From Chrysomallon squamiferum (lineage: Eukaryota; Animalia; Mollusca): a stretch of 64,000 nt of DNA. Location: NCBI GenBank assembly GCA_012295275.1, contig CM022667.1, positions 6,386,001 through 6,450,000 on the forward strand, in the 5' to 3' direction. A program made the position numbers and the translations under genes. Below, piece by piece: positions 5,012-50,208 of this stretch. The stretch's first letter is position 1. Every line of letters starts with the position of its first letter. The notes beneath the pieces were generated by a model that saw nothing but the letters and a program-made list of their open reading frames with translations, had not been told where the DNA came from and ran no database searches.

Positions 5012-5075
5012 ATGGCGTCTGAATTGAGGTGTTTGTTTCTGTGGGTATTTCTTCTACATACTGATATTTGCTTAG
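5012..5075 (+). CDS. Gene A1 exon 1: signal peptide MASELRCLFLWVFLLHTDICL(G)
   Basis: aaaATGG start, hydrophobic core, phase-1 donor G|gtcagt; near-identical paralogue at 19508. Confidence 0.88.
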
Positions 5076-5236
5076 GTCAGTTTTTACATTGGGATGTTGT
5101 TTTGTTTTTTTGTTTGTTTGTTGTTTTCGTTTTATTTTCTTCTTATTATTATTTTTGCTCTATTGTTATTTAGTTATATATTTATTTATTTCTTGCTTTC
5201 AGTGTTTGTGTAAATAATTAATTTCACTATAATTAA

Positions 5237-6210: not shown

Positions 6211-6299
6211 TCTTCTTCTTCTTCTTCTTCTTCTTCTTATTATTATTATTAATTTAATACATTTTTGCATTGTAGTCTTTTGTTTGAAAGTTTGAAAAA

Positions 6300-7500
6300 A
6301 AATATAATTTTTTTAATAAATATGCTTCAGTTAATGAATTTATATAAAAACAAAAATGACAATGCAGAGAATATGAGTAAACTTTGTTTTATTCTTATAA
6401 CCTGTGTAGACTTTTGTTCTCATGAAGCTTATTTCTTATTTTGATGTGTTTCTAATTTAATTTCACAACATCAGTTCAGTACATAATTTCCTAAACCTGT
6501 GAAGTGTAAGTAATATGTTCAAGAAATCTTTCATTTCAAAACTCAGAAAATGTTAGAGATACTTGAAGATAGAGATATTTATAAAATTATTTAAAATAGA
6601 TTTTTGAATTGTTGTTTATACAATCATTTGTTGCTTTATTTTATGTTATTTATTTATTTATTTTTCTGAAATGGGCAGATACACGAAGAAAACTTAATAA
6701 CTGATGTATGCGTGTCTGTGTGTTTTATTTAGTAGGTTTTACTTCTGACTTTTACAAACATTTACTTATGCATTATACAAGGACATTTCATGTTTGTATA
6801 TCTTGTTTATTTATCCTGCATAAAAATATTTTACTTAAAAGTTGAAGTCTAGCTTTATTTTATAGCAATTTCTAGTTAACAGAAAGTGAAAAAGCATACA
6901 TAAACACATACAGGTATGATGTTTGTAAATGCAGAACTAATCATCATCATTAAATCTTAATACATAAACCTTATTTTGTATTTCTCTGTACATAACTGTT
7001 AATTTAATATAATTTTAAATGATTTTGAGATAATGTTTCTCTATTTTCAATAACAATATGATAAAGTGTTACGTGATTAATATTTTATAAATTTAAAAAC
7101 ATACATAAGAAGTAATTAAAACAGAAATGTCACTTCGTTTTGAAAACTAGTAATCCATTAGAAAAAAAGATTAATACAAATATTTTACGATAAAATTGAA
7201 GCAATAGTTGATTTTATAATTATATACTTGTTTTTATTTTTAATTTTAAAATAAGTATTATGACATTGATTAATATTCTGCATATACTAAACATGTTCTC
7301 TATGTCTAATCTGCTATATTCCATTATCACACATTTTTACTGGCGTTGGTGATGGATGTAAAGATATTGTCCAAGGCTAACTTCACCATAACACAACAAA
7401 GATATTACTTCTGTCCTGTGTTTATTTAGTAAGTTCACACAATAAATTTGTTATTTTCTCTTGTATCAAAAATTATAAGACCTGCTGAAAATTATTATTA

Positions 7501-7543
<43 letters not shown>

Positions 7544-8600
7544 CATCATTATCATTATCATAATTATTATTGTTAACTGTACTAAAAAAATAAAAATGAA
7601 TAAAAAATAATATTAAGCAAATATTGCTCTCAATTGTACAATATTAGAAAAACCTAATTATTTATTTAAATATATAAATATGTTTCAAATTTCAGTCATG
7701 TTCTATATCAAGTTGAATGAATATGTTTAAGAGTTTAAACAATAGTTCCATGATGTAATTATTGTGGTTCAAATTCTTTTACAGATAAATAATTTCACTG
7801 ATTAGTAAAATGTTCTAAATAAAACTCTATAAAACACAGCTGCTATGAAAATACAGAATGGTATATATCCCCAACCTTGTAAAAAAACAATTGCTAACAT
7901 AATCATTCTTTTCATCATCTCTGTTTAGTCAACAGTTTCAGTTATCTCAAATATTCTTACATGCAAAAGATGAATGAGTGAAACTGAAGTCAGCTCTTTA
8001 TTATCATTCAACACAGTGTAAAATATTTGCATCTCGAATATGATTCATTAATATTCACATGACAATTAAACAAAATTATATGTAAAAAGGAAAAATGGTG
8101 GTAATTTAATCAGAGGACATCAAAATCAAAATTTTTCAAGAAACACAAAAGCAGGTGGCATGGTGCCAACTGGCAAACCGTTTTTCCACAGCCCTGACAC
8201 ACATGTATATCAAATTCATTTTATTTATGGTTATGTCTGTGCTGTCAATAAATAATCATGTATAATACTGTTAAGAAATGATCTGTAGTAATTGAATGTA
8301 TCAGCTTTTCTAGTTTACATCCATATTTTCCATTATTCTTAACAGCCTTTTGCTTGTTAATTTATTTGGTAACTGAAACAATAATATAATAATACGAATT
8401 CCTTCTTTTAATCTAAGCAAAACAAAAACACAACTGAAGAAAACGATTTTCATCTTATTGTTAGAATGTTATAATTTATTTTCCAGAAATATATTTTTCT
8501 AATAAATAAATAAATAAATAAATAAATATACATTATAATATTGATAATAATTTTTTAACTGTTGACAGTATGTTTCACCTTTCATAAGACTTTAATCTAA
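6300..8600 (+). repeat. Copy of the intronic stalk-microexon repeat module inside A1 intron 1
   Basis: Collinear with ~25950-27700; retains the donor context acag|gtatgatgtttgta at ~6910-6927 but not the acceptor or exon body. Confidence 0.75.
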
Positions 8601-8994
8601 AGTGATTACATTGGTTAAATTCCTCTTCAAAGTAATGGATTTAATTAATACATAATCCCAAGACTTAAGAACATTAGCTGTTTTAATAATATTTTCCTTT
8701 TCTTTACCGCTTCCTTCTTTCTTTATGAAACATAATTTAACAACTTAATCAGCGCTGTCCCGTTTAATTTAAGATTTGACAGCAGCCTATTGTCATTGAA
8801 ATAGCATTTTTGACGGTCTTTGTTTTTTATACATCTACAATGTTAATCCACCAAATACAAATTTTTACTTGATATATATAAACAATACTTTGAGCTAAAT
8901 TTAAAGTAATTTTCATTTGTACCAGGTTTGGAAAAAATACAAAGAAAACGACAAATATATATTTATTTTTTATTCTACTATCTTACTGTAAAAA

Positions 8995-9507: not shown

Positions 9508-9720
9508 GTTACACAGTGTATTTGTCAGGAACTTCATTAAATGCTATGTCATACACACTTACATGTACAGTGGCAGATGCTGCAAATCTCAGCGACTACG
9601 TAAACTTTAAAAGACAGATCTCTACAGCAGTCTTTTCTACAATAAAACAAACTACAAGTGGATGTTCAGTATACACCAAGCCACCAACAGGCTATGATTC
9701 AGAGTGTGGAAGTGGAACAC
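9508..9720 (+). CDS. Gene A1 exon 2: V-type Ig domain (partial, runs into the gap)
   Basis: Acceptor ttgtag|GT in phase 1. GYTVYLSGTSLNAMSYTLTCTVADAANLSDYVNFKRQ...GCSVYTKPPTGYDSECGSGT aligns with the A2 and A3 Ig exons. Homology is lost ~30 nt before the N gap. Confidence 0.85.
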
Positions 9721-9748
9721 AGGGAAAACAATGCTCAGATTAAGGGAT

Positions 9749-11897: not shown

Positions 11898-12144
11898 ATG
11901 GTCCAGAAAACATTAAACTGAACAGAAGCTCACCAGTAAAGATAATAGAAAACGTGGCTGTTTTGTGTGAGGTAGACTGTGATGAAGTCTGCTCTTACAA
12001 GTGGAACTGACAAACAAAGGAAATGAATGATGCTGTACTTTCTTTTACACAAATACATAACAGAGGCTGGAGTTTGTGTGTGTATTGTCACCAGTGTAAA
12101 CACAAACAAGTCAAAAATCAAAACTGTTATTTTAGATATAGAGT
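11898..12144 (+). pseudogene. Disabled Ig (I/C2-type) exon
   Basis: ttttcag|AT GGT CCA...GAG T|gtaagt. Translates GPENIKLNRSSPVKIIENVAVLCEVDCDEVCSYKWN*, then frameshifts to EAGVCVCIVTSVNTNKSKIKTVILDIE; has an in-frame stop plus a frameshift. Confidence 0.8.
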
Positions 12145-12239
12145 GTAAGTATCTAACATCATGTACCTTTTTAAAACTGTTACTTGTACATTATCCAAAA
12201 AAACTATTTATTTAAAGTACATTGTAAAGGTTTCTTTCA

Positions 12240-14552: not shown

Positions 14553-14828
14553 ATGTAACAAGAAGCTGCACTCTTTGACTGACACCAACTTGATGTTGTT
14601 TCCTGCTTCACGTGTAAAATCCTGTATCCAGACATCCAGCTTCTTTCCAGCTGTACTCCACTTACTTGGTGTTTGTCACTTCACGTAGAATGTGTGAGTT
14701 GTTTAACAGTTTGATGTGAGATGCTGGATTACTGTCAACTTCACATCTCAGAGACACAGGAGTCAGTTCATTAACTGTTATCTTTGTAGACTTTGAGTTT
14801 AAAGTGAAAGATGTTATTGACGTCTGAG
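14553..14828 (-). pseudogene. Gene B2 disabled Ig exon
   Basis: Acceptor ttgttatag|. Translates QTSITSFTLNSKSTKITVNELTPVSLRCEVDSNPASHIKLLNNSHILREVTNTK*VEYSWKEAGCLDTGFYT, then a frameshift removes the F-strand Cys. The 3' boundary is approximate. Confidence 0.8.
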
Positions 14829-15541
14829 CTATAACAAATGTTAAATTCATTGAAAAATAGACGGTAGCAACATGGACTAAAAAAATAAAAAAATAAATAA
14901 ATAAACGATTGTATTGCTTATTGTTATTATTATTGTTTTCTCACTGTTACTGATGTAAATAAAGAGATAATGATTAGTGATTCAGAAATAAGACAGTTGT
15001 GACTGGGATTAGTCATTTATCTGTTATGTAATCACCAAGAAATAGTAAAGTAATTAAATTTCAATCTTGTACAGCACTTCATACAACATCTAACTTGTAA
15101 TATAATATTTAGAATGACAAATTCAATGAAATTTGACTGAATGCACAACTCATAGATTTTAACTGGACAGCTACTTGTCAATTTACGAAAAAAGATAAAT
15201 TGATTATAATTATGTTTGTTTTTTCTGTTTGTTTTTTTTAAATTTGTTGTAGCTCTTACTTAGTCCATTTTTTTTTTTTTTTAAATTGTGACTTTTGTTC
15301 CAAGCACTATAGTAAAATTACTTCAATACATTATGAGACACATAAAATAATAAACACGAAAGACTGGCTTGATAATGAAAGGAATTTAACTGTATCACAC
15401 ATACGCACACACAAACACATACAGAAAGGTAAACAGAAAAAATAGGCATGATTTTTGACTGTGTAGTTAACTGTATTTATACAACTATATTCAGTATTAT
15501 TAATGAATAAAATAAAATAATTATAACAAAACTAAACTCAC

Positions 15542-15605: not shown

Positions 15606-15938
15606 TGATTCATGCATCAAAATGTTAAAAAGTTCTTAATGTTAATGTCCAAAACAAAAACAACAACAGCAACAGAAATATATCTATGTAATTTAAAAAG
15701 CGAAAAGAAAAATAATTACTAATAAAACGAAAGAAACATGATGATATGTAATTAATATTTTAAGTCTAGATTGCAATTCAAAGACAAATATTGAGAGTGT
15801 AAACAATGGATAATTGCGTAAGATTTTTCAAAACACTTTTAAGAGTTGGATGAAAAAAAATTTCTGCACATTCCACACTGACATATATTCAGAAATGTGA
15901 TACATTTTAACAAAATATGATAAACTGTTTTAACTCAC

Positions 15939-16268
15939 ATATTTTAGTTTTTCTACATGTAGATTGAATTCCACGATCTCCATCTTGACAAGTCCATATT
16001 ACAAAGTATGTTTCTGTGTTAAAAGACTGGATAGTGAGAGTAATAGTCTGTGTTGTTGAGTCAATGTGAGCAGAGTAACCAGTGAAACCAGGAAACAGTC
16101 GACATCGAGTATTTTGTGTGCTACACTGAACAACATTTTGTGATGATCCAGAAGTAGGTCGAGAAAAGAGAATTCCACTTCTAACAGCACCACTAACTTT
16201 ACACACCAACAGTGTTCTGTGTCCTTGTTGTCCACCACCCATACAGTCAAGTGTTGTAGTAGCCTCAC
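15939..16268 (-). CDS. Gene B2 N-terminal six-Cys V-type Ig exon (open frame; gene probably a pseudogene)
   Basis: 330 nt, ttacag|GT...T|gtgagt, phase 1-1. GEATTTLDCMGGGQQGHRTLLVCKVSG...VVQCSTQNTRC...GYSAHIDSTTQTITLTIQSFNTETYFVIWTCQDG...STCRKTKI. Confidence 0.8.
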
Positions 16269-16552
16269 CTGTAATTATTATTAAATATCAGGTATATATA
16301 TTATTTTTAATATTACAGTTATTTTACATTCTGAGTACTTGTTGTACATACAGTCAAGTGTTGTAGTAGCCTCACCTGTAATTATTAAATATCAGGTATA
16401 TCTATTATTTTAATATTACAGTTATTTTACATACTGTGTACTTGTTGTACATACAGTCGTGTTGTAGTAGTCTCACCTATAATTATTATTAAACAGTAAT
16501 ACCAGGTATATCTATTATTTTTTATATTAGTTTACATACTGTGTACTTGTTA
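16241..16552 (-). repeat. Triplicated ~100-108-bp unit spanning the B2 Ig-exon acceptor
   Basis: atacagtc(aa)gtgttgtagtag(c/t)ctcacct(g/a)taattatta recurs at ~16241, ~16348 and ~16451. Confidence 0.9.
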
Positions 16553-18130: not shown

Positions 18131-19124
18131 TTTTTGTAGCAGTTTATGTAAGTTTGCACATGAGTAGGTAATTCTTGAGATCTTTGTTATTTCCTTAGCA
18201 TTCTTGTTTTTTTATGTTTATGCAATATTAAACAGTAAAAAAAAAAAAAAAAAGCAATACAATGTCGTGCATGAAATATTTCTGGTAGCCATAAAAATTG
18301 CTGAAATTATTTGAAGGCAATAATCATAAAATCAGCAAGTTGAAGTTTCCGCTTGCTCTGCTAATCATGTGGGTTAACTTAGTTCTGCATTGCAAATTTA
18401 GATGGTATTCTTACTCCCCTTAAACTATGCTGTGACAAACTTTTACTTTTTTATATTAATTTTGATTTGGTGGAGGGACAAACAATGTTTCATGAGCATT
18501 AATTTCTGTCCTTTTAGCAACTTGCTTATTAACTTCAATTCAAATATAACTCTGGATCTAGGTTTAATGTAAATGCATAAGTAACTGTACAACAGTCAGG
18601 GGAGAAATGAAGCCATATATCCTTGTGAGCAAAGGTTATATCAGTGATTGTGGATTTAAGCATTCAATTGTAACAGCCATAATCAATTTAACATTCCCCC
18701 CCCCCATTATGAAAAATATAACTTTATCCAAAAACTTACTTAATTAAATACATATATATAATATAGCATTCATGCATATTGATATTTACGTGCGGAATTT
18801 GTTCGGCATCTGTTGGGATTTATTGGTTCTGAAGGAAAACGCTAACAAAAGAATGATAAATAATTGAAATAACTGAAATAAATAATATTCCTTTCTTAAA
18901 TTTTCACAACAAAAGCTGTTTCACTTTTCAGTGTCCCTTCTGAAGAGGAAAACTACTTGTGAGAAAAACGGCTGTACTCTTTCTCAAATACATAATTATA
19001 ATAAATAATAAAATATGTACTTAAAGTAGCAAACGATGTTAGATATTAACAGACATTTTGTTGTATCGTTTGACATTTTTACTGAAATATTATACAGTAA
19101 TAATGAATTCAAAAATGAAAAAGC

Positions 19125-19507
19125 ACTCACCGATGTAGAGTCGTTAGCCCGGAATCACGACACGGTGCAGGAAGTAAATTGTCAATAAGCAGGCATCAGG
19201 ACCATTCATAACAACTGAATTAGGTTTTGGTTTCTAAATAACAACAAACTTGACCGAGATTATTAAATTTGTCAAAACCGGTTTACAAGACAGTAAAACA
19301 ATAACGTGAAAATAAAGAAATGTTTTTGAAATAGTGTATGCCATATATTATAATAGTATCAGTTTCTGATAGAATATCGTTGTTGTTATTTTCTTATTTT
19401 TCTTTTCTTTTTTGATTGCCTTCTCAGTTTTCCCACTCAGAGCCACCTAAACCAGTTGGCTTGAAAGGGCTCGCCTAAATAGGACTCGTTTGTATAAACC
19501 AACGAAA
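19125..19507. promoter_or_regulatory. Putative bidirectional promoter between B2 (-) and A2 (+)
   Basis: Minus-strand donor gtgagt at 19130-19125 closes a putative non-coding first exon; GCAGGAAGT at 19167-19175; ACCTAAACCAGTT at 19445-19457. Part of a ~1.2-kb block (18430-19632) paralogous to 4055-5230. Confidence 0.6.
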
Positions 19508-19571
19508 ATGGCGTCTGATTTGAGGTGTATGTTTCTGTGGATATTTCTTCTACATACTGATATTTGCTTAG
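19508..19571 (+). CDS. Gene A2 exon 1: signal peptide MASDLRCMFLWIFLLHTDICL(G)
   Basis: 64 nt, aaaATGG, phase-1 donor G|gttagt; paralogue of 5012-5075. Confidence 0.9.
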
Positions 19572-20652
19572 GTTAGTTTTTATACTGGGATGTTGTTCTT
19601 TCAGTGTTTGTGTAAATAATTAATTTCACTATTATTAGGTAATCTTGTAGTTTAGGTCACTCACCAGCAAACTGTGAGACAGGTTACCGTTATACATAAT
19701 TATGATAAGGTAACGAATATTTTACGCGATTGTTGGTATTGCGAATATATTTCCGATAATAACATATACACACAATACAAATATTTGTCTGACTTAAAAG
19801 TTAAAGTGTATACATAAGAATTATGATTCGAAGTCGCTTTTCTACTGCCAATGACACTGATAATGATATAAAGTTACACTTACCGGTAAACTTTCAGTTT
19901 AGATCTGCCACATCTTAAGAAATAATTTACTAAGTTACGTAAGTATATATATATTTTTTTCTTTTTTTTTTTAAACTGCTAGAAAGTAACTTAAAAAAAA
20001 AATAACAATAAAAAATAAAATAAAATAAGGAAAAGAGAATAGCTGAAGAATGAAAAAAATAATGCTATGCTGTATGTACCTTAGCCACTTTATCATAAAG
20101 TTTATATTACAGCACTGTATTTTATCTATGAACATAACATTATATTTGGTTGTTGAACATTTAACTGTGTTTTCATATTAGTTCTCATTATCCTGAAATG
20201 TTTTTTTTGAGTCAGTGCATACCACATCACACAAAATTTAAATAATTAAATAATTATGATCTTGATCTTTGAATTTGACAGCTTGTAACTGGTGATCTAT
20301 AAACAGTATTGGTGGAGGTACATAAATAATGCTTAGACATTTTAATGTGTGTTCAGTTTCAAATTCCAGTATTTACCTGATCTTGTGATCTGTTATTTAT
20401 TTGTTTCTGTACTTTTGTTTCTCTCTTGTTTATTTATAATGTTTTGATCAGTAAGTAATATCTAAGAAATATACTTTAGAAGGACAAAAATTAAAATTAA
20501 TAAATTTACAAAAACAATAAAAAACAAAAACCATCAAGAAAAACCAGAAAAAAAACTCTCCATAACAAAAGTTTAATGCATCAGAAATATAATTTTTTTA
20601 TTTATTTACCTTTTTTAATTATTTATTTATTTATTTTGTTCATGTCTTGTAG

Positions 20653-20994
20653 GTTTTTCATTGAGATTGTCTGGCTCACCAAATCCTCCTTCTTACATTC
20701 TGACCTGTACAGTGACAGATGCTGCTGGGCTTGATGATCTCGTACTGTTCAATAGGCAAACATCGGCACTTGCCATTATTTCAATAGAACAATCTCCTAC
20801 AAAAGGATGTAAGGAGTTCACCTATCCACAAGGTTATAATGCAAGTTGTGGAACTGGAACAGAAGAAACGACATCAGAAAGTAAAACGTACACTGTGAAG
20901 ATAAATAATGTTGCAGACATAGATCTTACTGACTGGTGGTGCTCACTGGCAACAAATAAGACACAAAGCAACGAACACAGAGTAACATTTGAAA
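20653..20994 (+). CDS. Gene A2 exon 2: four-Cys V-type Ig domain
   Basis: 342 nt, ttgtag|GT...A|gtaagt, phase 1-1. SYILTCTV...VLFNRQ...GCKE...ASCGTG...YTVKINNVADIDLTDWWCSL; sequons NAS and NKT. Confidence 0.92.
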
Positions 20995-23607
20995 GTAAGT
21001 TGATGTAAATACATTTTTATTATCTAAACATGTTACTGTCATTATCTAAGTAAGATAGGTAATCTACAAATCCAAGTATATGAAATTAAGGTTTAAATAT
21101 TCATACTGAAATAGTTAAGCTGGGACCTAAGGTATCTTATCAGGTTTCATGCATTCACATGTGATAGCACTTGTCGCTTAATTGGCATCAATAAAGAGAA
21201 AGCCTTCACTGTGCTGAAGTCATCAGAATTATTCCAGTTAGACACCGAAATAGTATTCACATTAATTTACACCAAAGTCAAATGTACAATAGAATATGTT
21301 TGCCTTTATGTTTTCTTTAACTGCCATTCTTCATGTAGTACTTGTAACAGAGGTCTACATTAATTTAAACTTTTTCATTTGTTTCTCTTTAACCTGTGAA
21401 ATATCTTACAAGAGAGTAATATTAAGTTTTTTTTCATCAACTAAGACTTGCTTCTAGTTTGTAATGGTGGCCATTTTGATTCTGTTTCTGATTATACAAA
21501 TCATGTACAGCAATGGTTTTATTATATCACAACCACAAAACATAGGATTAGACACCGAAGTTGGATCCATATATAGATTTACACCAAAATGAGTGTCACT
21601 ATTAGAATCTGATGGTGCCATCTTGAAAATGGCTTCTAAGGTGATCAGTATATTCTATATTTTTGCTGATATAAGCTATGTCCAGCAGTTTATATATTGT
21701 TCTATCATTAAAGAAACCATTAATGGATGTAACATTTCACCAATGACAAGCTGCCAGAGTTGGTAGGAATCAAATATGCAGCTTAAGTAATATCATGTGT
21801 ATCCACCTCTGACCTGAAAACATTTTACACACATTTGTCTTACGTTATTCATTGGTTGTCTCAACAAGTCTAGGGTGATATTCTTCTACTTTACAAATCT
21901 GGCCATAATTGAACTGGAAACTAAACCTGGCTTCAACTGTGAACAGTACTTGACCCCAATGAACACACCCAATGATGAGTGCAATTATTGGTTATCAGAC
22001 AACTGCATATTGTCTGTTAAGGCTGTAGAGAACTTGACAGAGACTGCAACATTGTCACATTATTGGCATGCAAGTTATGTGATTTCAAATAGTAAGTATG
22101 ATGGTGTACCTGTCTTCTCTTTTCATAGTGCTTTGGGTTCTTCTTGAATGTTGACTATTTCAAAACGAATTCTTTGCCAGGAAATGTTGCCAAAATCAAT
22201 CAACTAATCTCTAAGTCACACCACGTCTCAGAGCAACATTTCTTTTCATAGCCATTCTGAAATGAAGCTAGAACCCTTCATTGATGTTCAATAGTCAGTT
22301 GACATCACAGTGTGCTAATTAATTATGTTGATGGAAAAAACAATATTAAATGATGATGGTATTATTATGCCAATTTTGATAAAGATATGTAGTAGTATGC
22401 TTTAATACCTGTTTGCAAAGCTTCTTTTCTTTTCTATAAGGAGTGGTCTTTTGCCTAACATGCATTTCAAATGAAGGGCTTTTGTCTTATTGTGTTATTT
22501 TCACTGGGTTTCTTCTCCATGATTTTTCACTGGGGAGCTTTTGTTCTTCCTTTCAAAATTACTGAGGGGCTTTTGTCTGTCTGTGCATTTTTGGACTGGG
22601 GGCGTATGGTTATGTCCTACATTTCTAAATCATCCAGGAAATGGTTGTCATTTAAAATGTTCACAGACACTGGTGATAGGCAAAACCACTTAACTTTTTG
22701 TTTCAGGATAATTTTATTAATACTAGATTTTGTTGCATAAACAGTTATTACATTTAGCTGATTTTTTTCTTTTTCTTCATATATATATATATATATTATA
22801 TATATTTCAAAGCTGGAGGAAGAATAAAATTACCACCTTCATGTTTTTAATTAAAGTACTGAATAATATATTTTAGTTTTCAAATAAACACAGGTTTCAT
22901 GCAAAGGGGTAGTGTGGATGAAATAATCAGCTTTTATGCTAAACATTGCCTTTCTTTAAAGACATGCAAAGTTCTTATAGGTTTCATTCTCCATGATTCT
23001 CATTGGAATTCCTTAATGGCAGTAAATACAGATATTTTCCTTAAGAAATTCGGTTAATTGATACGTTATATGTCTACTATGGAGAACTATAGAGATAGCA
23101 TCCTATGAACAGCTGGTCATATGGAAGTACATCACATGACCAACCCTATGACTAGCTGTTAAAATGCATTATGTTATTCAGTACTACTGTTGTAATTAGA
23201 GGCTTACAATAAACAGTTCTTTTAAACTTATAGTGTTATACACAATTAAATTAATTGATATTGAGATAATAAATGACTACCTAATTACATGTACAGTATA
23301 GAATACAATATATAATCCTCTGTAGTGGTCCAAGACTTCATACAGTAGGCTGCAAAGTTACTGGCAGCAAACATCATAATACACTTATATTAAATAACTA
23401 TTACAGTTATGGCTTGAGTCTCTGTAAAATATTGTGTTAAAGACGTTGGTCTGTCAGAGACCGATTATTGATGCATACTTGTATATGTTTGGTTTTATGT
23501 TCTTCACAAAACCTCATATCTCTAGAGGAAGAACCCACTACTTAATTTTTAGTTTAGTTTGAATCCTACAGCCAATAATATATGCACATATATATATATA
23601 TATATAT

Positions 23608-24303
23608 GGGTCATTCCGTGTCAAATCACCCCCCCAAAAAAAAAAATTTACACCCTAGCATCAGAAACACCTAGTTTTCTCAAATTTATGTGAACTTTAT
23701 GCATACATGTAAACCTACAATGTCTTACTTGATGATCAAGAGAGATGGTGATTCCTACCATCCAGAATTGATCATTCAGGTTTTAGTTAATCAGATGTTA
23801 ATGGCTGAAAAGGTGTTATTTTCATGTATGTGCATTTTTTAAATCTATATTGTGGCTAAATAAAAAATATTACACCTAGGAAACTTTTATATGTTTTAGT
23901 TAACATGTGGGAGATTAAATTTCAATAAAGGCCATCTCAAGATCACGTGATCCACACGGTCACTTTCAAGGTCATAGCAAAGGTCAAAAGGTCAAGGTAC
24001 TCCAGTATTTTCCAAACTAAACACAAATGGCAGATTTGGAATCCTTGTCATTTTGCCTTTCTAACAATACCAATTGTATGAAGATTGGCCCAGTAGTTCC
24101 TGAGATATGAGGGTTCTAAGGTTGGTGGTCACACCCATTTTTGCCAAAAATCTCAAAATTAGGTGGGCCGTATCTCCCACACCACTGATCTGATTGGGCT
24201 AATATTTCGTGCTGTGGGATCCCAATCAACAAGTATACCAAGTTTCATAAAAATCTGAGACGGTCAGGTTTAAACCATTGGGTGATTTGACACGGAATGA
24301 CCC
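23608..24303. mobile_element. Non-autonomous DNA transposon (MITE-like), Sola-like termini
   Basis: TIR GGGTCATTCCGTGTCAAATCACCC / GGGTGATTTGACACGGAATGACCC, flanked by ATAT on both sides within a TA tract. Interior is shared with 50677-53124. Confidence 0.85.
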
Positions 24304-25637
24304 ATATATATAATTTCTTTTTAAATTGTATATGACTATCTTTGACCTGTAGCGTTATTTTATTTTATTTTATTAATATTTATGATTATTACTACACCAC
24401 AAATGTAATCTTTATTGACTAAAAAATTAATTTTGTGATAGTGTTATGAAATCTGCTTCTCCTATTCCTTTCCATCAATAATTATTGTGGATTAATGATA
24501 ATAATTTAATAACACAAATTCCATTTCTTAATCTATTATGAAAAACAAAAACAAATTAAAAGGGGAAATAAAAAATAAAATCATGTCTTCATGTGCTGTG
24601 ACTGTTATGATAAATTAAGCCCAGTCCTGATGCTGAGACTATATTTCAGATGGTGCATGATTTTAAAATTAAGGTAGTAGCTAACATGAAGTTAGCATTC
24701 ATTACTAATTTGTAGGGATTTTATCTTAGTATATTCTTGTGTATGTATACCATTCTTGGTATGAGATTTAATACTTTTATCATTATTTTTCTTTGTCTTG
24801 TTTTAATAAACAACATAGGTACAAGTCAAAAACTAAATCTGGTATGCTATTTCTTTATGAATATCACATCATTTCACAACCATGAGAACAAATTTAAATT
24901 ATAATTTTTTTTATTATTAAAATGATTAAAAACAACTGTGCTTTACTTCTTTCATGTACAGTAAATAAATTATGACCATTTGTTGGTTACAAATTCATTT
25001 CTTAATGCTGTTATGAAATGTTTTGTATAAACTCAGTGCTTCTGCTTTTCCAGGTTTTCTATTACTCTCAGTGTTCATTTTGATAATTATTATTTTTATT
25101 ATTATTATTATTACTTTTATTATTGTTAATATCTCAATGTAATTAGTATATATTTCATTTGTTAAATTTGACTTAAAAATGCATGTAACAAATCTAATTA
25201 ATATATTATTTCAAACCTTTCTTAAATATATCAGCATAATCAGCACCCATACCTATTAAATTCAACAGATGTGTTTTAAAATCCATCAAATAAATATATC
25301 AGTATTCTATAAAATATATTTCTCACATTTCAGAACAAACTGTATTATGTTAAACCTCTGAAGTATAATGAAGAGGTTCGAACATTTTAAAAATAAAGTA
25401 TTACAGATATTTATCAAGTTATTTAAAATTGGCTTTTTTTCTTTCTACAATTTATTATTTTATTTTATTTTATCTGTTTCTGAATTAGACAGATATATGC
25501 AGAAAAAATATACATACACACACGTTATTCACATGTAACATTTTTACATAGTATTTTTTATATATACACCATAATATAAGCATCAAATTAAAAATAAAAT
25601 TATTATTTCATTAAATTTTCTTTTTCCAATCTCATAG

Positions 25638-25661
25638 GTCTAGTTACAGTAACGCAATCAG
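25638..25661 (+). CDS. Gene A2 stalk microexon 1 (SLVTVTQS)
   Basis: 24 nt, ctcatag|GTCTAGTTACAGTAACGCAATCAG|gtatat; same acceptor context as the other microexons. Confidence 0.72.
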
Positions 25662-25869
25662 GTATATTTGTAGTCAGCTGCTGTCTTGTTAACAGTTTAG
25701 TCAACATTTACAGTTTAACTTCCATCATAGATAACAGAGATATTTTATATAATTAATAGACACAGCTGTATTTAAAACACTACACTCTTTCCAACAGTCA
25801 TATTTATATATGATTTTACAGATTCTAACTATTTATTTCTTTCTTATTATTTATCTATTATTATTATTA

Positions 25870-25913
<44 letters not shown>

Positions 25914-26690
25914 TTTTTTTTTTTTTTGTATTTCAGAAACATAAATATTCTTAATTGGTACACTTCAAGTAATGAATTTATATTAAAACAAAATTGACCA
26001 TGCAGAAAATATCTTATAGATAGACTTTTGTTCTCATAAAGCTTATTTCTGATTTATAAGCCTTTTCAAAGATTATATGTTTGATGTTTCTAACTTCATT
26101 TCATAACACCAGTTCAGTACATAATTTCCTATAGCTGTGAAGTATACGTAATATATTCAAGAAATTTCTCATTTGAAAATAGAGAGAATAATAGGGATAC
26201 ATCATTTTATTTAAAATAGTTTCTTTCTTGAATTGTCCTTTACAAAACTATTTGCTGGTTTATTTGATTATTATTTTATTTGATTAATATTTCTTTCTTT
26301 TTCTGAAATGGGCAAATACATGCAGAACATAAATAACTGATGTATGCATGTCTCTGAGCATGTGTTTTTGTGTGTGTGTCTCTGTGTGTGTGTGTTTGTT
26401 ATTTAGTAGGTTTTACACCTGACTTTTACAAACATTTTCTTAAGCATCATACATGGACATTTTATGTTTGTATATCTTCTTTATTTGTCTGTATACAAAT
26501 GTTATTCTTAAAAGTTCAAATCTAGCTTTATTTTTACAGTAATTTCCAATAAAAAGAAACAACAAAAAAAACAAGATATACATGATATAGTCATACAAAA
26601 AAAAAAAAAGACACAATTTAAAAAAAATAGAACAACAACAAAAAATAATAATAATCTTTTCATTTTGAATTTTTATTTTCCTTGTAATAG

Positions 26691-26714
26691 GTCAAACTAC
26701 AACACCACAAACAG
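26691..26714 (+). CDS. Gene A2 stalk microexon 2 (GQTTTPQT)
   Basis: 24 nt, taatag|GTCAAACTACAACACCACAAACAG|gtatga. Confidence 0.82.
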
Positions 26715-28415
26715 GTATGATGTTTGTACATGTAGAACTAATCATCATCATCGAATCCTAATATATAAACTTTATTTTGTATTTCTCAATACATAAATGT
26801 ATTAATTTAATATAATTTAAATTAATTTTGTGGGTAATATTTCTCTATTCCAATATCAGTATGAAAAAAGTGCTACATGATTAATATTTTATGAATTTAG
26901 AAAGGTTACAAGTAATTACAAAAGAAATGTCACTTGGTTTTGAAAACTAGTAATACATTAGAAAAAAGATTAATATAAATAATTAAAAAAAAAAAAAAAA
27001 TGATGTTGCAGCTGATTTTATAACCATACACTTGTTTTAGTTTTGCTTTTTAAATAAGTATTATGACGTTGATTAATATTCTGCATGTACTAAACATACT
27101 TTGCGTCTAATCTGCTTTATTCCATTTCTCATATGTTTTCCCTGCAGCTGCTTGGATATCAAGATTATTACTGGTGTTGATGGATGTAAAGATATTAATT
27201 GTGCAAGCTTAATTTCATCATGACACAACAGTTCTATTCTATTTAATTTTACAATATATTTGTTGTTATTTTCTCTTGTATTGCCGCTTAAAAAGGTCTG
27301 TTATATACTATTATTATTATTATTGTTATTATTATTATTAGTTTTACTAGAAAATGAAGTCTAAAATCCCAACAACAACTGATAAAAAATATTTTCACAT
27401 ATTAACATTTCCATAATTATGACAACTTTGGAAAGCCAAACTATAAACTTAATGATGTTTCAGATTCCAGTCATGTTCTATATCAAGTTTATGAGTATGT
27501 TTAATATGTAACATAGTTTCACATGTAACAATTGAAGTGCCAATTCTTTCTATGAATAAATAATCTGACTGAATTGTAAAATGTTCCTAATAAAAAGCTT
27601 TAAAACTCAGCTGCTATGAAAACATACACATTGCTATTTTTGCCCAAGTAAAATTGTAAAATACCAGTTACTAACACAATCATCCCTTATATCATATCTG
27701 CTTATTGTTTTACTTTACAAGGGTGCTGGTGATAATGTCTGGATACAAAATTATCATAAGTTTGTATTCTTAAATTTGAAATTTAGTTTTGCAGAGTTCT
27801 TTTTTTGTTCAATGTTTGAAAAGAAATTTAAGAGTGACCTGTTCATACTTCAGGAGATCTTCCAGATATATTACTACTGTATTTAATTTTAATGTACTTT
27901 AATATAATGTATTCAACATACAGATATGTTGTAACAGTGACAAACAGAACTTATTCACAGTAAAATGTTTTTCTGTCATAGTGATTTACTTATTAGTTAC
28001 TTACACATGAATAAACAAATTAAACATATATGTATCATTTACATAAATTTGTTATAAAACTTATTCTTGTGCATCAATACATAAATGAATTAGTTTAATA
28101 TAATTTTAAATAATTAATTTCTGTGTCTAATCCGCTTCATTCGATTTATCACACATCTTCCCTGCAGCTTGTTGTTTATCAAGATCATTACTGGTGTTGG
28201 TGATGGATACAAATAATTAATTGTGCTGTGCTAACTTTACCATAATATTACAGTTATATTACTACTTCACTGCAGTGATATAATATTTTAACAAAAAAAT
28301 GTTAAAATCAGAGTCATTTGCAATAAAAAAAATGTTTTTTATCATTTTTGACTCATACCAACACCTAAGAGATGTATTAAAAGTGTGTGTGTATGTATAT
28401 ATATCTATATATATG

Positions 28416-28447
<32 letters not shown>

Positions 28448-28467
28448 TTTATGTATGGATGTATCTA

Positions 28468-28505
<38 letters not shown>

Positions 28506-29237
28506 TGCATTTATGCCACTAGGAAATGAAGTTTAAAACCCAGCAACAGTGAATAAACAACTTTTTGATAACTGTTGCTGTCAGAATAGTGATTTAAAAT
28601 AGGAATGTTGCCATCCAGGGAAGTTTTACATCAAGTTTGTATAAATATGTTCAAGAGCTTATAGAATAGTTTCACGAATGTAATAATTGAAGTGTAAATG
28701 CTTTCTGTTGAAAAAAAAACAAAAAAATATATATAATACAGTGACTGATGATTCATTAGTAAAATGTTCCTAATAAAACACTTTAAAATACAACCTCTAT
28801 GAACACACACATAATGTTGCACATCCCGTTTTGTAAAACACCACTTACTAACATAATCATTCCCTTTATCATCTCAATTTATTCTGTTACTTCTAGAGGG
28901 CACTGTGCTGATAGTGATTTGAAATGAGTCGTATTTCTGCGAAGTGTTTTCAAACAGTTTATAGCCAATGGTTTTTGGATCAAAGTTGTGTTTAAAAGTT
29001 TACAAAGAAATACAAGACTGACCATTTTGCACGCTGCAAGATCTTTCAGTTACATTTACATTACCACTGAATTTTTTAAAATACCTTAGTATAATAGTTG
29101 ACATAAAGATATATTTTAAATTTTTTTTCAAAAGTTTCTAAAGTTTCATAAAACATTTTCTTTTGCATCATAAGGTAAACAAAATAATAAAAAGAAAATT
29201 ATTATTTCATTTAAATTTTCATTTTTCAATGTCACAG

Positions 29238-29261
29238 GTCAAACTACAACACCACAAACAG
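29238..29261 (+). CDS. Gene A2 stalk microexon 3 (GQTTTPQT)
   Basis: 24 nt, gtcacag|...|gtatga; exon sequence identical to 26691-26714. Confidence 0.82.
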
Positions 29262-30160
29262 GTATGATGTTTGTAGACGTAGAACTAATCACTGTCATAA
29301 TATGTTAATACATAAACTTTATTTTGTATTTTTCAGTACATAAAAAGTATTAATTTAAAATAAATTTAATATAATTTATGGGTAATGATTCTGTGTTTCC
29401 AGTATTAATATGATAAAGGGACTATATGAGTGACATATCATGAATTTAGAAACAAATTATGAATATTTATCACAGAACTGTCATTTTATTTTGCAAATTA
29501 CTATAAGAAAAATAATTATTAATGTAAATTTAATTTACTATACAGTTTATACTATACTACTACTACTACTATTCTTATTTATTTATTTATTTATCCCAGT
29601 GAAATTTTACATCAAGTTGTATAAATATGATTAGAAATTTAAAAACCAACATTCAAATTGTTGCTGTTGAAAAATAATCTGACTGATTAATAAAATGTTC
29701 CTAATAAAACACTTTAAAATACAACCTCTATGAACACACACATAATGTCATATATCTCCAACCTTGTAAAGCACCACTCACTAACATAATCATCCCCTTT
29801 ATCATCTCAATTTATTTGTTACTTCTAGAGGTTTCAGATAAGTCATATTTTTGTATTTCTATACATGCTTTCAAACTGTAATTATCTAGGGGTTTTTGGA
29901 TCAAAGTTTACAAAGAAACACAAAACTGACCATTTCACACACTGCAAGATCTTTCAGATACATTTACATTACCAGTGAAATTTTTAAAATACCTTAGTAT
30001 AATAGTCAACATAAGATTTTTACCTTTGAAACAGAAGTGGTAGTTTATATATATATATATATATATATTTATAAAACATTTTCTTTTGCATCATAAGGTA
30101 AACAAAATAATCAAAAGAAAATTATTATTTCATTTAAATTTTCTTTTGTCAATGTCATAG

Positions 30161-30184
30161 GTCAAACTACAACACAACAAACAG
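30161..30184 (+). CDS. Gene A2 stalk microexon 4 (GQTTTQQT)
   Basis: 24 nt, gtcatag|GTCAAACTACAACACAACAAACAG|gtatga. Confidence 0.82.
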
Positions 30185-30793
30185 GTATGATATTTGTACA
30201 GTTATAATTAATCATTGTCATAAAATCTTAATACATAAACTGTATTTTATAATTCTTAAAAATGTATTAATTTAATATAATTTAAAATAATTTTGTGGGT
30301 AATGATTCTGTGTTTCCAGTATTAATATGATAAAGGGACTGTATTAATCATATTGTGAATTTAGAAACAAATTATGAATATTTATCACAGAACTATCATT
30401 CTATTTTGCAAAATACTATAAGAAAAATAATTATTAATGTAAATTTAATTTACTACACAATTAATGCAGAATTTCATTTTTAGCCATTTATTTTCAATCA
30501 TAATTTTTAAGTATTTAAGTATTGTGACACTGATCAATATTATGCATGTACTAAACATGTACTTTGTGTTTAATCTGCTTCATTCTATTTATCATACATC
30601 TTCCCTGCAATTTCTTCTTTATCAAGATATTTGCTGGTGCTGTCATCAATACAAATAACTAACTTACCATAGCATCTCAGTTATATCACTACTTCATTTT
30701 AGTGATATGATACTTTTACAAAAAATATTAAAATCCCAGCTTTTAAGGTTTTTCTTCTGTTTTTGACTCAAATAGAGGTATGTTAAATTATGT

Positions 30794-30835
<42 letters not shown>

Positions 30836-32020
30836 TGTATTGTTATTATTATTGTTCTTGTATTATTTTTATTTTTATTTTTTTTCTCTCTGTTAATGCA
30901 ACCAGGAAATGAAATCTAAAATCTCATCAACAATGAATAAAAAACGTTTTTATAAATGTTGCTTTCAGTAATGCATTTTAACATATTAACATGACCATGA
31001 TTATGAAAACATTGGAAAGTCTAACTATAAACTTAATGTTTCAAATTCCAGTCAAGTTTTAAATAAGTTTCTATAAATATGTTCATGAGTTTGACCAATA
31101 GTTTCATGAATGTAATAACTGAAGTGTAAATTCTTTCTGTGGCAAAATATATACTTGACTGATGATTCATTGCTATTATTATTATTATTATTATTATTAT
31201 TTATTAATTTATGTTTTTATTTATTTATCCCAGTCAAATTTTACATCAAGTTTATTAAATATGATTAGAATTTTAAACACCAACACTCAAATTGTTGCTG
31301 TAGAAAAATAATCTGACTGATTAATGAAAATGTTCCTAATAAAACACTTTAAAACAGCTTCTATGAACACACACATACTGCCATATATGCCCAACCTTGT
31401 AAGATGCCAGCTGCTAGCATAACCACCCTTACATCTTCTGTCTCTCTTGTGTGCATTTATGAGGTGCTGGTGCCAATAATAATGTCTGGATTTGAAATGA
31501 GCTTAATTTTGTAGTTAGGTTTTATTGGGTCAAAGTAGTGAATGTGTGAAGTGAAAAAAACAAACAAAAAAAACTTGGTAATCAGAGCAAGCTGTTGTAA
31601 AGTACACTATCAAAGTAGAGGGTAACATAACCTTTGTAAACTTGTGTAAGACTGCACCAGAGACAGTAACAGGATGTAAAGCTATTTCCATAATGTATCT
31701 GAATGCCAGTCTCACAGCAGATTAATTTCTTTTAGATCTTCCTAAGACAACCTTGCAAAAGAGAAAGCCTTGGGTGTTCTATGCGAATTTTCACAATTTA
31801 AGACCTTGTTTTTTTAATTATTATTATTATAGTATCATTAATGTAATTCAGAATAGCTTTTGTTTGTTTGAAAGTGTGCAAAGAAATTTCAGGTTGACCA
31901 TTTCACACTTTGTATGATCTTTCAGATATATAACTAAAGTATCTTAATATAATATTTGACATAAAGAAACATTTCTGTGAAACAAGAAGGTGGCTGTTAA
32001 TGTATATTTATTTATTACAG

Positions 32021-32128
32021 GTCCTGGTGAATCACTTGACTGGTGTATTGCAGTGTCTGCTGTACTTGTGGTTCTTATTGTAGTTGGAATTGTCATCCTC
32101 ATTCTAGTGGTGAAGGAGCCATTTGATG
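32021..32128 (+). CDS. Gene A2 transmembrane exon GPGESLDWCIAVSAVLVVLIVVGIVILILVVKEPFD
   Basis: 108 nt, ttacag|GT...G|gtcagt, phase 1-1; ~22-residue aliphatic stretch followed by Lys. Confidence 0.88.
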
Positions 32129-34103
32129 GTCAGTTTTAGTTTTTCTATTTGGTTTATCTTTGAGATTCATCCAATGTTGCATATATAGATAAAAATGACA
32201 CAGAAAAACATGTTATACATACCACAACTCATCATGCTAGGCACACAGTCTCATCAGAGTATTTTGTTTTCTTTCTGATTTATTAATAAGATTAAATTTT
32301 ACTCAATGTTGACACTGAACAAAACGTGGCTGGGTTGTGCTACATGATTGAAGTAGTGTGCAACACTGTGTTTTGCCATATTAGTAACCTACTTCATCTA
32401 GTTTCCAGTTAATATAGCACCATTTTGTTTTAGTAGGTGATTGACGTGGCAAACCGTGTGTGTGTTTATGTAGATACATTTTTTCTTTTTGTATGTATGT
32501 ATGTTCACAGCAACCAGTTGTTCATTCCACTGCTATTACTGGAAAATAAGATTATAGGAAACAAAAAATGTATAACTTCTAGAATAGAATTCAAGGATTC
32601 ATAACCATTTTACCTTTTGTTTGATCTTGTGTATTATGTAACCTTCTTATGATCTTCAATCAAAATCAAAGCCCAGGATGTCAATAAGAAAATATAAAAC
32701 ATCTAGACATAATTGTTTTAGAAGTCAGGAGTCAAAGTATGAATGCCTGAGACCACAGGACATCTTTTGTATTGGATGAATCTGTCATCAACTACACACA
32801 CTGAAGTCCTGATATGTAGATCCCAATCAAGTTATGCATACTTGAAGCAGTAATCCCTAATGAACTGTTTAAACATATCAGTGCATTAAACATGTCAATG
32901 CTAAAAGAAAAGTCCTTTCCAGACTCAGACTTTTCTCTTCTTTTTTTCATATAGCCTCCTGCTATTATAACTTGGTAGAGATTTTTTGCTAAAGGTGATA
33001 ACTAGAAGTGATGAGAAGCCTTTGAAGGATGCAATTCAACACTGACCAGTATTTTTGTTATATGACCAAATTAATGATGAATAAAGCTCTTCACTGTTGA
33101 CAGTGTCTTTTTTCTCAGTGTTGGACATTTTGTCTACTGTTTCTGTTCATAATGTGCACATCTGTCTGCCTTCTTCATACCAGTATCCAAGATCAGCAGT
33201 TTTATCTTTTTTCTCATTGTCACAGAGTTGACATGAAAGGTTTTTTCTGAATGATTCATTTCATGTCTTTAAAAATGAGTAACAGTTGCAGTTATCTCTG
33301 TAAGGAAGGTATAGAATGTTTGATGCTAACCATTCTAACTTTCTGCCACCTATGATAGATTTTGCTGTGTGTCTTACACATTACATGGGCATGGATATTC
33401 ATATACTTACTTTCAGAATAACTTAAAATGGATCTAATATTCTGTACCAAAATTTCAGACTAGATATTTTTATTTGATAGCAGCAGAATATATGAAATAC
33501 ATTAGTTTGATATTGGAATTTTATTATAGTTTTCAGTCTTGGTTAGGCAAAATGAACTGCACATTACTCACTCATTTATATGATTTTGCATAAAATGACT
33601 TTAAAATGACTGATGCATCCAACATACATTTAACAATGTTTTATCATACATATCAATTTTAGATGTTCTGAATACATTTTCTGATTTACAAAGAGTGCTA
33701 CCTGTATAGGATTTTTTTTAGATGTTGGATTCTATATGAAGTTTGGGCCACTTTTTGCAGAGATTTCGAGTTTCAAAGATTGCTTTCCAAATCTTTGACA
33801 AATTTTGACAGATCTTATTTACAGATGTATAGGTTCAATGAATATAAAATCTTATATTTCTACATAAACAAAAATTGAGCACCACTTCTCTGTTCATGAA
33901 ATGATTTCTATAAAAGTAAAGTTTTTGGAAACTGATTAGCAATTAATTGTTTTCAATAGTGCATATTTTTATTTATTTATTTATTTTATTCTTCTTATTA
34001 TTGTTTTTAATTTTTTTTAACTTCACTCTTTTCTACTGCTGTTTTATATTATTCAATCTGATTATTTATTTGTTTATTATTATTAATATTATTTTTTTTT
34101 TTT

Positions 34104-34141
<38 letters not shown>

Positions 34142-34212
34142 GTGTTAGTATTATTAGTATTATTATTATTAATATTATTTACCGTTTAATTGAATTTATT
34201 GTGTAATTTTAG

Positions 34213-34259
34213 ACAAAATTCTGAAGACACTGGGGATAGTTTTGATAGTGTATAAATGA
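34213..34259 (+). CDS. Candidate A2 post-TM exon DKILKTLGIVLIVYK*, cut by the palindrome junction
   Basis: Acceptor aattttag| in phase 1; open frame. The last codons and the stop (34251-34259) come from the right palindrome arm. Confidence 0.45.
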
Positions 34260-41070: not shown

Positions 41071-41249
41071 AAAAAAGAGAGATGCACTCACCAAATAATG
41101 CACACAGTAATTGTCCATAGTACAGGTCTTGTGCGGGTGGCAAGTGATGATGTGTGATCTGTTAAAATCAGAGCAGAATGAAAATCTCAATTAAATATAC
41201 CTTTAATGCATAGGATTATTTATTTATTTAAAAATAATAATAATAATTT

Positions 41250-41665
41250 TCAACCCGGCCGTATCAGATTTTTATGAAACTTGGTATACTTTCTTCATTG
41301 GGATCCCACATATCTCAGGAACTACTGGGCCAGTCTTCATAAAATTGGTACTGTTAATGCTTTGGGCCTGATTGTGTAGAACATGTTATGCCATTTGGCA
41401 TCTTTTCATATCCTTCAGCCATTACTTCAGACATGTCATGTGGATTTTGACTCTAAAAATGAGTTTTTTGTCTCGGGGAAGTGTATACATGTAGAAAATG
41501 TACATTGTAATGCATTGTATCAATCATCTGCGCAGGTATGCATTTTTAAAATCTATATTGTGGATATTGTGGCTAAACAAAAAATATTACACCTCTGAAA
41601 CTTTTATATGTTTCAGTTAATATGTGGGAGATTAAATTTCAAGAAAGGTTATCTCAAGGTCACGT
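41250..41665. mobile_element. Fragment of the Sola-like element
   Basis: 41370-41665 matches 52420-52695; 41255-41350 matches the subterminal sequence of 23608-24303 inverted. Confidence 0.75.
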
Positions 41666-42256
41666 TGTTATGCTAGCAACTGGCATTTTACAAGGTTGGG
41701 GATATATGGCATTATATGTGTGTTTATAGAAGCTGTTTTAAAGTGTTTTATTAGGAACATTTTCATTAATCAGTCAGATTATTTTTCAACAGCAACAATT
41801 TGAATGTTGGTGTTTAAAATTCTAATCATATTGATACAAGTTGATGTAAAATTTCACTGGGATAAATAAATAAATAAATAAGAATAGTAGTAGCAGTAGA
41901 ATAGTAATCACTGTACAGTAAGTTAAATTTACATTAATAATTATTTTTCTTAGAGTAATTTGAAAAATAAAATGGCAGTTCTGTGATAAATATTCATACT
42001 GTATTTCTAAATTCACAATATGTAACTCATAAGGTCAGTGTATGGGATTTTAATATTTTTTGTTAAAACATCATATCGCTAATCTGAAGTAGTAATGTAG
42101 CTGAGATGCTAATGTAAAGATTATTTTAAATTATGGTAAATACATTTATCTATTGAGAAATATAAACTACACTTTATGTATTAAGATATTATGACAATGA
42201 TTAGTTCTGTCTATAGTTTGACCTATGACACTGAAAACAAAAATTCAAAACGAAAA

Positions 42257-42980: not shown

Positions 42981-43004
42981 CTGTCTGTGATGATGAAGTT
43001 GGAC
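42981..43004 (-). CDS. Gene A3 stalk microexon (GPTSSSQT)
   Basis: 24 nt, gtcacag|GTCCAACTTCATCATCACAGACAG|gtatta. Confidence 0.78.
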
Positions 43005-45406: not shown

Positions 45407-45430
45407 CTGTTTGTGGTATTGTAGTTGGAC
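45407..45430 (-). CDS. Gene A3 stalk microexon (xPTTIPQT)
   Basis: 24 nt, gtcacag|GTCCAACTACAATACCACAAACAG|gtatga. Confidence 0.8.
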
Positions 45431-47580: not shown

Positions 47581-47604
47581 ATGTCTGTGATACTGTAGTT
47601 TAAT
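47581..47604 (-). pseudogene. Gene A3 degenerate microexon with in-frame TAA
   Basis: gtcatag|AT TAA ACT ACA GTA TCA CAG ACA T|gtatga; same module context, with a stop in the reading frame. Confidence 0.65.
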
Positions 47605-49866: not shown

Positions 49867-50208
49867 TTTCAAATGACAATGTGATATTGTTACTATCTGT
49901 TTTATTATTCTGCAGTGAACACCACCAAACAGTGAGATCTTCACTTTTAACTTCACTTATCTTCAAAGTGTAAGTCTTAGTCTGTGACGCTGTGTTGTCC
50001 GTTCCACTTCCACAGTTAGCATTGTAACCAGTTGGTGGAGGATTAAAAACAGAACAATCTGTAGTAGTCTGATGTATTGTAGTAACAGAGACTTTTGCAG
50101 TTTGCCTCATAAACAAAACAAGATCATTAAGACCAGCAGCGTTATTTGCAGTACAGGTCAAAGTGTAGGAAGGATAATTCTGAGAGCCAGACATTACTAG
50201 AGTGTAAC
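49867..50208 (-). CDS. Gene A3 exon 2: four-Cys V-type Ig domain
   Basis: 342 nt, ctcatag|GT...A|gtaagt. SYTLTCTA...VLFMRQ...DCSV...ANCGSG...YTLKISEVKSEDLTVWWCSL; same length and phase as the A2 exon. Confidence 0.92.

Follow-up and report, generated by a model that had tools for sequence, protein, structure and literature searches.

How can the stalk of a cell-surface protein be encoded by exons of only 24 nucleotides (nt)? The question is raised by a gene, here called gene B, that lies in a 64 000-nt stretch of the Chrysomallon squamiferum genome (assembly GCA_012295275.1, contig CM022667.1, positions 6 386 001 to 6 450 000 of the forward strand). This whole stretch is referred to as the window, and all positions below are counted from its first letter. 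In gene B, several 24-nt microexons lie between an immunoglobulin (Ig) exon and a transmembrane (TM) exon. The reading favoured here, with moderate confidence, is that gene B belongs to a clustered family with a V-type Ig domain, in which the stalk is encoded by 24-nt phase-1 microexons carried in duplicated units, stalk length changes as units are gained and lost, and likely also by skipping, and the anchor is probably multi-pass.

Gene B lies on the forward strand and was resolved into seven exons with AG/GT ends, with all junctions in phase 1 and one open frame. Exon 1 (19508-19571, 64 nt) encodes a predicted signal peptide and ends with a phase-1 donor; paralogous exons are located at 5012 and 61235, and RNA depth was found in this bin in one of four runs. 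Exon 2 (20653-20994, 342 nt) encodes a V-type Ig domain with Cys residues at 18, 52, 65 and 96 and two N-glycosylation sequons. It is followed by microexon 1 (25638-25661), which is divergent (16/24 identical to microexon 2), by microexons 2 (26691-26714) and 3 (29238-29261), which are identical to each other, and by microexon 4 (30161-30184), which is one base away from microexon 3 and is carried in a unit that is an 82% copy of unit 3. The first TM exon (32021-32128, 108 nt) comes next, and its start was seen in RNA. The four stalk exons encode 32 residues, half of which (16/32) are Ser or Thr, and account for 96 of the about 650 coding bases of the gene. An initial annotation, made from the letters of the window, had described the same signal, Ig, 24-nt and TM exons as phase 1, canonical and joined in one open frame; their coordinates and splice ends were confirmed, as was its view of a Ser/Thr stalk made of symmetric exons.

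Use of the microexons was assessed with RNA contigs assembled from four runs of one study, which were compared with positions 19300-31500 only; 5-12% of the words of 19400-29300 were found. In two of the four runs (X1 and X3, at depths of 69.6 and 18), the Ig donor at 20994 was joined to a 24-mer at 29238 with GT..AG ends. Because microexons 2 and 3 are identical, the joint may mean either of them. Microexon 1 was bypassed in both cases. A contig from a further run (X4, one of four) contains a 24-mer of the microexon-2/3 type and then the start of the TM exon, seen as a loose end behind 29263. The Ig exon itself was matched without difference by a 162-nt contig at 20711-20872, and in X3 both the Ig exon and the signal bins are covered. 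A full-inclusion mRNA contains 3/26 and 8/24 of the junction 31-mers, and the DNA of the window contains 2 and 4; with such low numbers for the full-inclusion form, the junctions require transcripts without microexon 1, or without microexon 4 as assembled here. The junction contigs are genuine splice products of shorter forms, and the use of 24-mers in transcripts that the initial annotation had anticipated was thus observed, in two of four runs for the Ig-to-24-mer joint and in one of four for the joint between 24-mer and TM exon. No signal-to-Ig joint was among the RNA joints listed, which was not taken as absence.

Other contigs leave the Ig donor by different routes. In one X1 contig, a B-like Ig end is followed directly by a variant of the tail exon of a paralog (gene C, described below), with no stalk exon between. 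In X4, a contig joins 20994 to 22689, and the letters between are not known; 22 nt upstream of 22689, an in-frame acceptor opens a candidate alternative terminal exon (22667-22740, forward strand) of 24 codons with a hydrophobic tail and a stop, one of four such tails among 114 acceptors. It may encode an isoform that has no stalk and ends in a sequence resembling a glycosylphosphatidylinositol (GPI) signal. Loose ends of X3 and X1 contigs at 20972-20996 reveal further expressed Ig 3' variants with different following exons, which implies more family members or alleles than the window contains. Many other RNA joints (at 23.7-24.3 kb and between repeat units) mostly lacked GT..AG ends; they were judged to be repeat-derived and were discarded.

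The 24-mers each belong to an intron unit, about 0.8-2.5 kb long, that has been duplicated. Eleven distinct units were aligned, of which seven are intact (four in gene B and three in paralog C) and four are dead, both genes having dead ones. All seven intact units retain 24 nt and Ser/Thr-rich coding. A 23-nt, frameshifting unit of gene B at 24819-24841 (forward strand), which is dead or mis-sequenced, is the counterpart of the intact unit at 49177-49154; neither this unit nor the paralogs had been noticed in the initial annotation. A relic that has kept its donor and lost its acceptor lies at 6890-6913 (forward strand). When five live units that are closely related were compared in pairs, likeness was higher for the exon than for the downstream flank in 10/10 pairs, and higher than for both flanks in 8/10; microexons 2 and 3, for instance, are identical and have flanks that are 53% and 79% alike. 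In the five pairs that the stop-bearing unit forms with live units, exon likeness is at about the level of the flanks. These unit pairs overlap and are not independent, and gene conversion could yield the same excess of exon over flank likeness.

Splice cassettes were also counted over 20995-32020 using a loose acceptor-N-donor pattern and lengths of 15 to 40. At 24 nt there were eight cassettes; the other 25 lengths had 0-4 each. Six of the 24-nt cassettes were open, compared with a shuffle mean of 0.73, and four were reached by 2/500 shuffles; two of the six are noise of the loose pattern. This count is a weak test because the units are duplicates and not independent, and RNA weighs more. 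A search of metagenome contigs with a degenerate microexon pattern gave 0 matches.

These observations bear on the possibility that intron duplication left the microexons behind as neutral by-products, randomly included and decaying, without tuned function. Such an origin would account for the death of four of the 11 units and for the conservation of the flanks, the duplications being recent. It accords poorly with the precise splicing seen in RNA on both sides of a 24-mer, with the higher likeness of live exons than of their flanks, an excess that the dead one does not show, and with the retention of length and Ser/Thr-rich coding in 7/7 intact units, and we consider it very unlikely. A different account, in which the microexons are spliced constitutively and any variation in stalk length is one between alleles and paralogs that have gained or lost units, deserves more weight but is still doubtful. 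It draws on the unequal numbers of intact units in B and C, with dead ones in both, on introns and Ig ends that are not the same in the RNA contigs as in the window, and on the missing cover of the Ig body in X1. It has to face the joint lacking microexon 1 in two runs, one of which, X3, covers the Ig exon and signal bins too, and the contig running from the Ig donor into intron 2, which suggests alternative splicing at the gene B locus.

Several points speak against skipping within gene B as favoured here. The RNA consists of contigs of one study and not of reads of the animal whose genome was assembled. At 90% likeness, the Ig body is without depth in X1, so that the joint in this run may belong to a paralog. 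The contigs that match introns are rich in substitutions, which indicates the presence of other alleles or paralogs, and, microexons 3 and 4 being one base apart, the X4 join could be allelic. Among the RNA joints listed, none includes microexon 1, none microexon 4 and none the full set of four, which was not taken as absence. The RNA contigs would fit either skipping or a difference between alleles or paralogs. The proposal that stalk length is tuned in steps of eight residues therefore stands for copy number, with four intact units in B and three in C; for splicing, the use of at least one 24-mer was found, and skipping within one allele is a proposal.

The fold of the Ig exon was examined next to its family. 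A model built from an alignment of 104 rows (alignment A2: two exons of the window and 102 of the 150 listed homologs, after long, multi-domain and short-match rows had been dropped) reached a predicted local distance difference test (pLDDT) score of 96.5. Matches obtained with Foldseek were VH/VHH domains (TM 0.59-0.77). With VIA-align, the best match had a Z score of 12.8 and a root-mean-square deviation of 2.3 over 101 aligned residues, and antibody V domains, T cell receptor, CD8, CD28 and PD-1 were within the top 50. As judged from this model, the exon has what defines a V-type Ig domain, a sandwich of two sheets with a B-F disulfide and additional C' and C'' strands that superposes on V domains; it is a divergent one, in agreement with the IgV assignment of the initial annotation. 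No TIM or CD300 entry was among the structure matches listed, a listing that does not exclude them. A previous fold from three sequences (pLDDT 53, no Foldseek match at E <= 0.001) was set aside.

A canonical V domain has a Trp in strand C and a D-x-G/A-x-Y-x-C motif. In the 104 rows, Cys52, Cys65 and Cys96 are invariant and Cys18 is nearly so, and Phe32 and Trp94 occupy, family-wide, the usual places of the V-domain Trp and Tyr, so the canonical motif is absent. The gene B Ig exon had no match in Pfam, and 18/104 family members matched Pfam V-set at E <= 0.1. A HMMER profile of the three window paralogs retrieved 200 proteins at E <= 0.001; eight of the ten relatives looked up are from Gigantopelta aegis and bear the RefSeq labels uncharacterized or CEACAM-like, and the two best Atlas clusters for the Ig family are commonest in Mollusca. 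On these sequence comparisons, the clustered Ig family is likely gastropod-specific. The idea that annotation had missed the family is thus partly right: Pfam does not recognize the gene B domain and no repeat stalk of this kind was seen among the 150 homologs listed, but the relatives are annotated in RefSeq. Two HMMER matches, P0014 and P0089, look repeat-driven, and P0014 was left out of the window homology comparison. A word-based homolog search returned three candidates, none significant, and A2 with longer lengths returned 7689, again none significant. The match L001 was rejected as due to chance, with an in-frame stop close by and no Ig pattern beyond.

The way in which gene B ends depends on the reading of an inverted copy. 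From 34251 onwards, the letters repeat, as reverse complement, those that run from 33580 backwards. The segment 34251-38777 (reverse strand) is a 99.2% copy of 29053-33580 that includes microexons 3 and 4 and the TM exon, and 34 nt separate its end from an N gap. Over 4442 aligned columns, 6 substitutions and 15 gap events distinguish the two arms; in true paralog pairs, the counts are 267 substitutions against 43 gap events and 96 against 14. Such an error-like excess of gaps over substitutions would fit the same DNA read twice, and the inverted copy is likely an assembly fold-back. An exon starting at 34213 is cut by this copy after 38 nt (34213-34250, forward strand); its stop codon lies inside the copy, and the end point of 34259 given in the initial annotation was not confirmed. 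If the copy is a fold-back, the case shows that such an artefact can fake a C-terminus. A similar pattern was seen at two contig starts, 9949-11568 and 39012-40640, which are 97.8% reverse complements of each other with 9 substitutions and 18 gap events (error-like).

The 34213 exon is likely the start of a second TM exon. The TM exon of gene B was compared with two Gigantopelta aegis proteins, P0021 (XP_041347222.1, LOC121367147), which has the same Ig type with 40% identity to the B exon, and P0151 (LOC121367015), in which a membrane module of the P0021 type stands behind a different Ig type. The score was 69 with each of them, and 0/2000 shuffles reached it. The membrane module of P0021, homologous to that of gene B, starts with the same DWCI motif as in gene B and contains three hydrophobic segments with hydropathy peaks of 2.9, 2.6 and 2.7; the gene B TM exon is homologous to the first segment of P0021 and P0151. 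Among 46 open acceptors before the breakpoint, 34213 was the best when compared with P0021/P0151 (gain of 27 vs 13 for the next), and 13 residues of its exon match the second segment in register, what would follow being missing because of the inverted copy. Since two of the three hydrophobic segments, the first and the second, have their counterparts in the TM exon and the 34213 fragment, the gene B anchor is probably multi-pass rather than single-pass; three passes, as in P0021/P0151, seem quite probable from the alignment.

The alternative is a single-pass type I receptor of the TIM/CD300 kind, as suggested in the initial annotation, with a read-through end or a short tail and with the inverted copy as a real rearrangement. 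TIM and CD300 type I receptors have one membrane pass and then a cytoplasmic signalling tail; homology points to several passes in gene B, the 3' end of which is missing from the assembly. In favour of a single pass, reading through the TM donor leads to a stop after at most four codons, among homologs with a hydrophobic segment the majority look single-pass (P0012, P0016 and P0028, for example) and the 34250/34251 junction has no N gap. Against this, among 150 homologs the TM exon matches only P0021 well (joined-piece score of 79 vs 43 for the next), and P0021 has three segments; the 34213 exon extends the match in register, and the gap events of the inverted copy outnumber its substitutions, unlike those of true paralog pairs. 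With four Cys, no WFND motif, gastropod relatives and a match to a three-segment module, the single-pass TIM/CD300-type reading is not supported and is held to be unlikely. Some facts weigh on the other side of the multi-pass call. Only 13 residues of the truncated exon bear on it, and hydrophobic stretches align easily; a search with the membrane region found only two homologs, P0021 and P0151, among 2828 candidates; the read-through form would be a single-pass protein with an early stop; and the RNA comparison covered 19300-31500, upstream of the TM exon.

Under the favoured reading of a microexon-built stalk, stalk length would shift in 8-residue steps through the gain and loss of intron units, and exon skipping, which we hold to be reasonably probable, would produce a ladder of stalk lengths from one allele. 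The stalk, extended, O-glycosylated and of about 32 residues at most, would act as a spacer that sets the height of the Ig domain above the membrane, to which every exon would contribute a fixed step. A three-pass module of the P0021/P0151 type would serve as anchor, and GPI-like anchors may be supplied by paralog C and perhaps by the alternative last exon at 22667. Considering architecture and clustering, and by analogy with transmembrane gene clusters of snails (PMC7494358), the most likely role is cell-surface recognition (of self, microbe or symbiont). We propose only tentatively that the family diversifies, from a single small cluster, along two axes, stalk length (by skipping and the birth and death of units) and anchor type (CD47-like multi-pass, or GPI-like through an alternative last exon or the shuffling of paralogs), resulting in tunable recognition of self or symbiont. 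The locus is of interest because it shows the stepwise building of a mucin-type stalk by duplication of exon units, both live and dead stages being preserved next to each other, and because the mollusc Ig family concerned escapes recognition by Pfam. If skipping is regulated, stalks of different natural lengths under a single Ig domain would make the reach of a receptor directly testable. An IgV domain on a multi-pass anchor would also be an unusual layout.

Two paralogs of gene B are present in the window. Paralog C is on the reverse strand. Its likely signal exon (61178-61235, 58 nt, phase 1) would be linked to an IgV exon 11 kb away (49867-50208, 342 nt), the protein of which is 54-56% identical to that of B. 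Intact 24-nt microexons follow at 49154-49177, 45407-45430 and 42981-43004. A 24-nt unit with an in-frame stop at 47581-47604 is dead or a poison exon, and a dead unit at 42199-42222 has kept its acceptor and had its donor deleted. The tail exon (41088-41158) encodes a polar spacer, about 11 hydrophobic residues and a read-through stop, and may be a GPI-like signal. Paralog A, on the forward strand, has a signal exon at 5012-5075 (18/21 residues identical to B) and an Ig exon at 9508-9748 that an N gap cuts short. Over 1.3 kb of upstream region and signal exon, A (3979-5101) and B (18356-19597) are 67% alike, which indicates duplication of a whole gene including the promoter region. Decayed stalk-intron sequence of the B/C type occupies 6213-8777 in the signal-Ig intron of A and suggests that an older copy was rearranged or deleted. 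Given the reverse-complementary contig starts noted above, the scaffold may carry the segment between the two N gaps in inverted orientation, in which case C and B would form a head-to-tail tandem pair.

Further Ig-like exons lie between A and B. An exon of a second, divergent Ig type at 15907-16287 (reverse strand) shares 44% identity with the P0151 Ig domain, and the Gigantopelta aegis proteins P0029, P0030 and P0032 likewise mix both Ig types. Two C2/I-like Ig exon fragments were found, one at 11899-12145 (forward strand) with an in-frame stop and a frame change, the other at 14662-14940 (reverse strand) with weak Pfam Ig matches. A dispersed repeat family (23657-24307, 50592-51032, 52403-53311 and 41351-41664), likely a non-autonomous mobile element, is very abundant in the RNA contigs, with a summed depth of up to about 1650 in one bin. 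A FLYWCH zinc-finger fragment with a frame change at 2976-3448 (forward strand; Pfam E 1.8e-8) is likely what is left of a decayed Mutator-type transposon. Broken transposase-like frames are located at 51075-52077 and 56944-59888 (reverse strand); Pfam gave no match for the two that were tested.

Gene B was compared with known systems, beginning with its closest relatives: at the level of gene models, P0021 and P0151 have no Ser/Thr repeat stalk between Ig domain and membrane module, unlike gene B. CD47 carries one IgV domain on a multi-pass membrane domain with five passes and is not known to have a repeat stalk; no sequence or structure link between CD47 and gene B was found in this analysis. 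CD300 receptors have an IgV domain with a second disulfide, and either a tail with an immunoreceptor tyrosine-based inhibition motif or a charged TM residue. The gene B Ig family has an extra invariant Cys pair (52/65 in the 104 rows), which may or may not be placed as in CD300, and the first hydrophobic stretch of gene B has no charged residue within; the tail of gene B is not part of the window. Literature listings on Ig families of molluscs and Gigantopelta aegis and on stalk microexons yielded nothing on the gene B family, most subscription papers and supplements lying outside the search, and the available part of a preprint on DICP (10.1101/2021.06.11.448072) contains nothing on stalk microexons.

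TIM receptors resemble gene B in combining an IgV domain, a Ser/Thr-rich mucin segment and a membrane anchor, and splice isoforms without several exons are described for chicken TIM4 (PMC4913284). They differ in their Ig domain, which has six Cys and, in TIM-1 and TIM-4, a phosphatidylserine-binding WFND motif (PMC4913284, PMC11164124); the gene B domain, with four Cys, no WFND and a Phe replacing the strand-C Trp, falls outside the TIM definition, and gene B probably has several passes. Mucin variation in human TIM-1 lies mostly within one exon (PMC11164124). Clustered, divergent cell-surface genes with structural variation are also known in snails, as the polymorphic transmembrane clusters PTC1/PTC2 of Biomphalaria (PMC7494358); their products are described as single-pass and the available text mentions no microexon stalk. 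In CD46, an alternatively spliced and variably O-glycosylated Ser/Thr/Pro (STP) segment stands between the ligand-binding domains and the membrane (PMC7709105). CD46 thus shares with gene B short spliced Ser/Thr segments in the stalk, and differs by its CCP domains, single pass, vertebrate origin and small fixed STP set, with no sign of continuing duplication of exon units in the part of that paper available. Schistosome micro-exon genes (MEGs) contain very small symmetrical exons and produce splice variants differing by few residues (PMC4350168). Microexons make up most of their coding region, whereas in gene B they form only the stalk, under a folded Ig domain, and the likeness noted is one of layout. 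Since CD46 and TIM4 already provide examples of short Ser/Thr stalk exons that are spliced, and schistosome MEGs of microexon ladders, the surprise offered by this locus is limited; gene B is a member of neither CD46, schistosome MEGs nor TIM.

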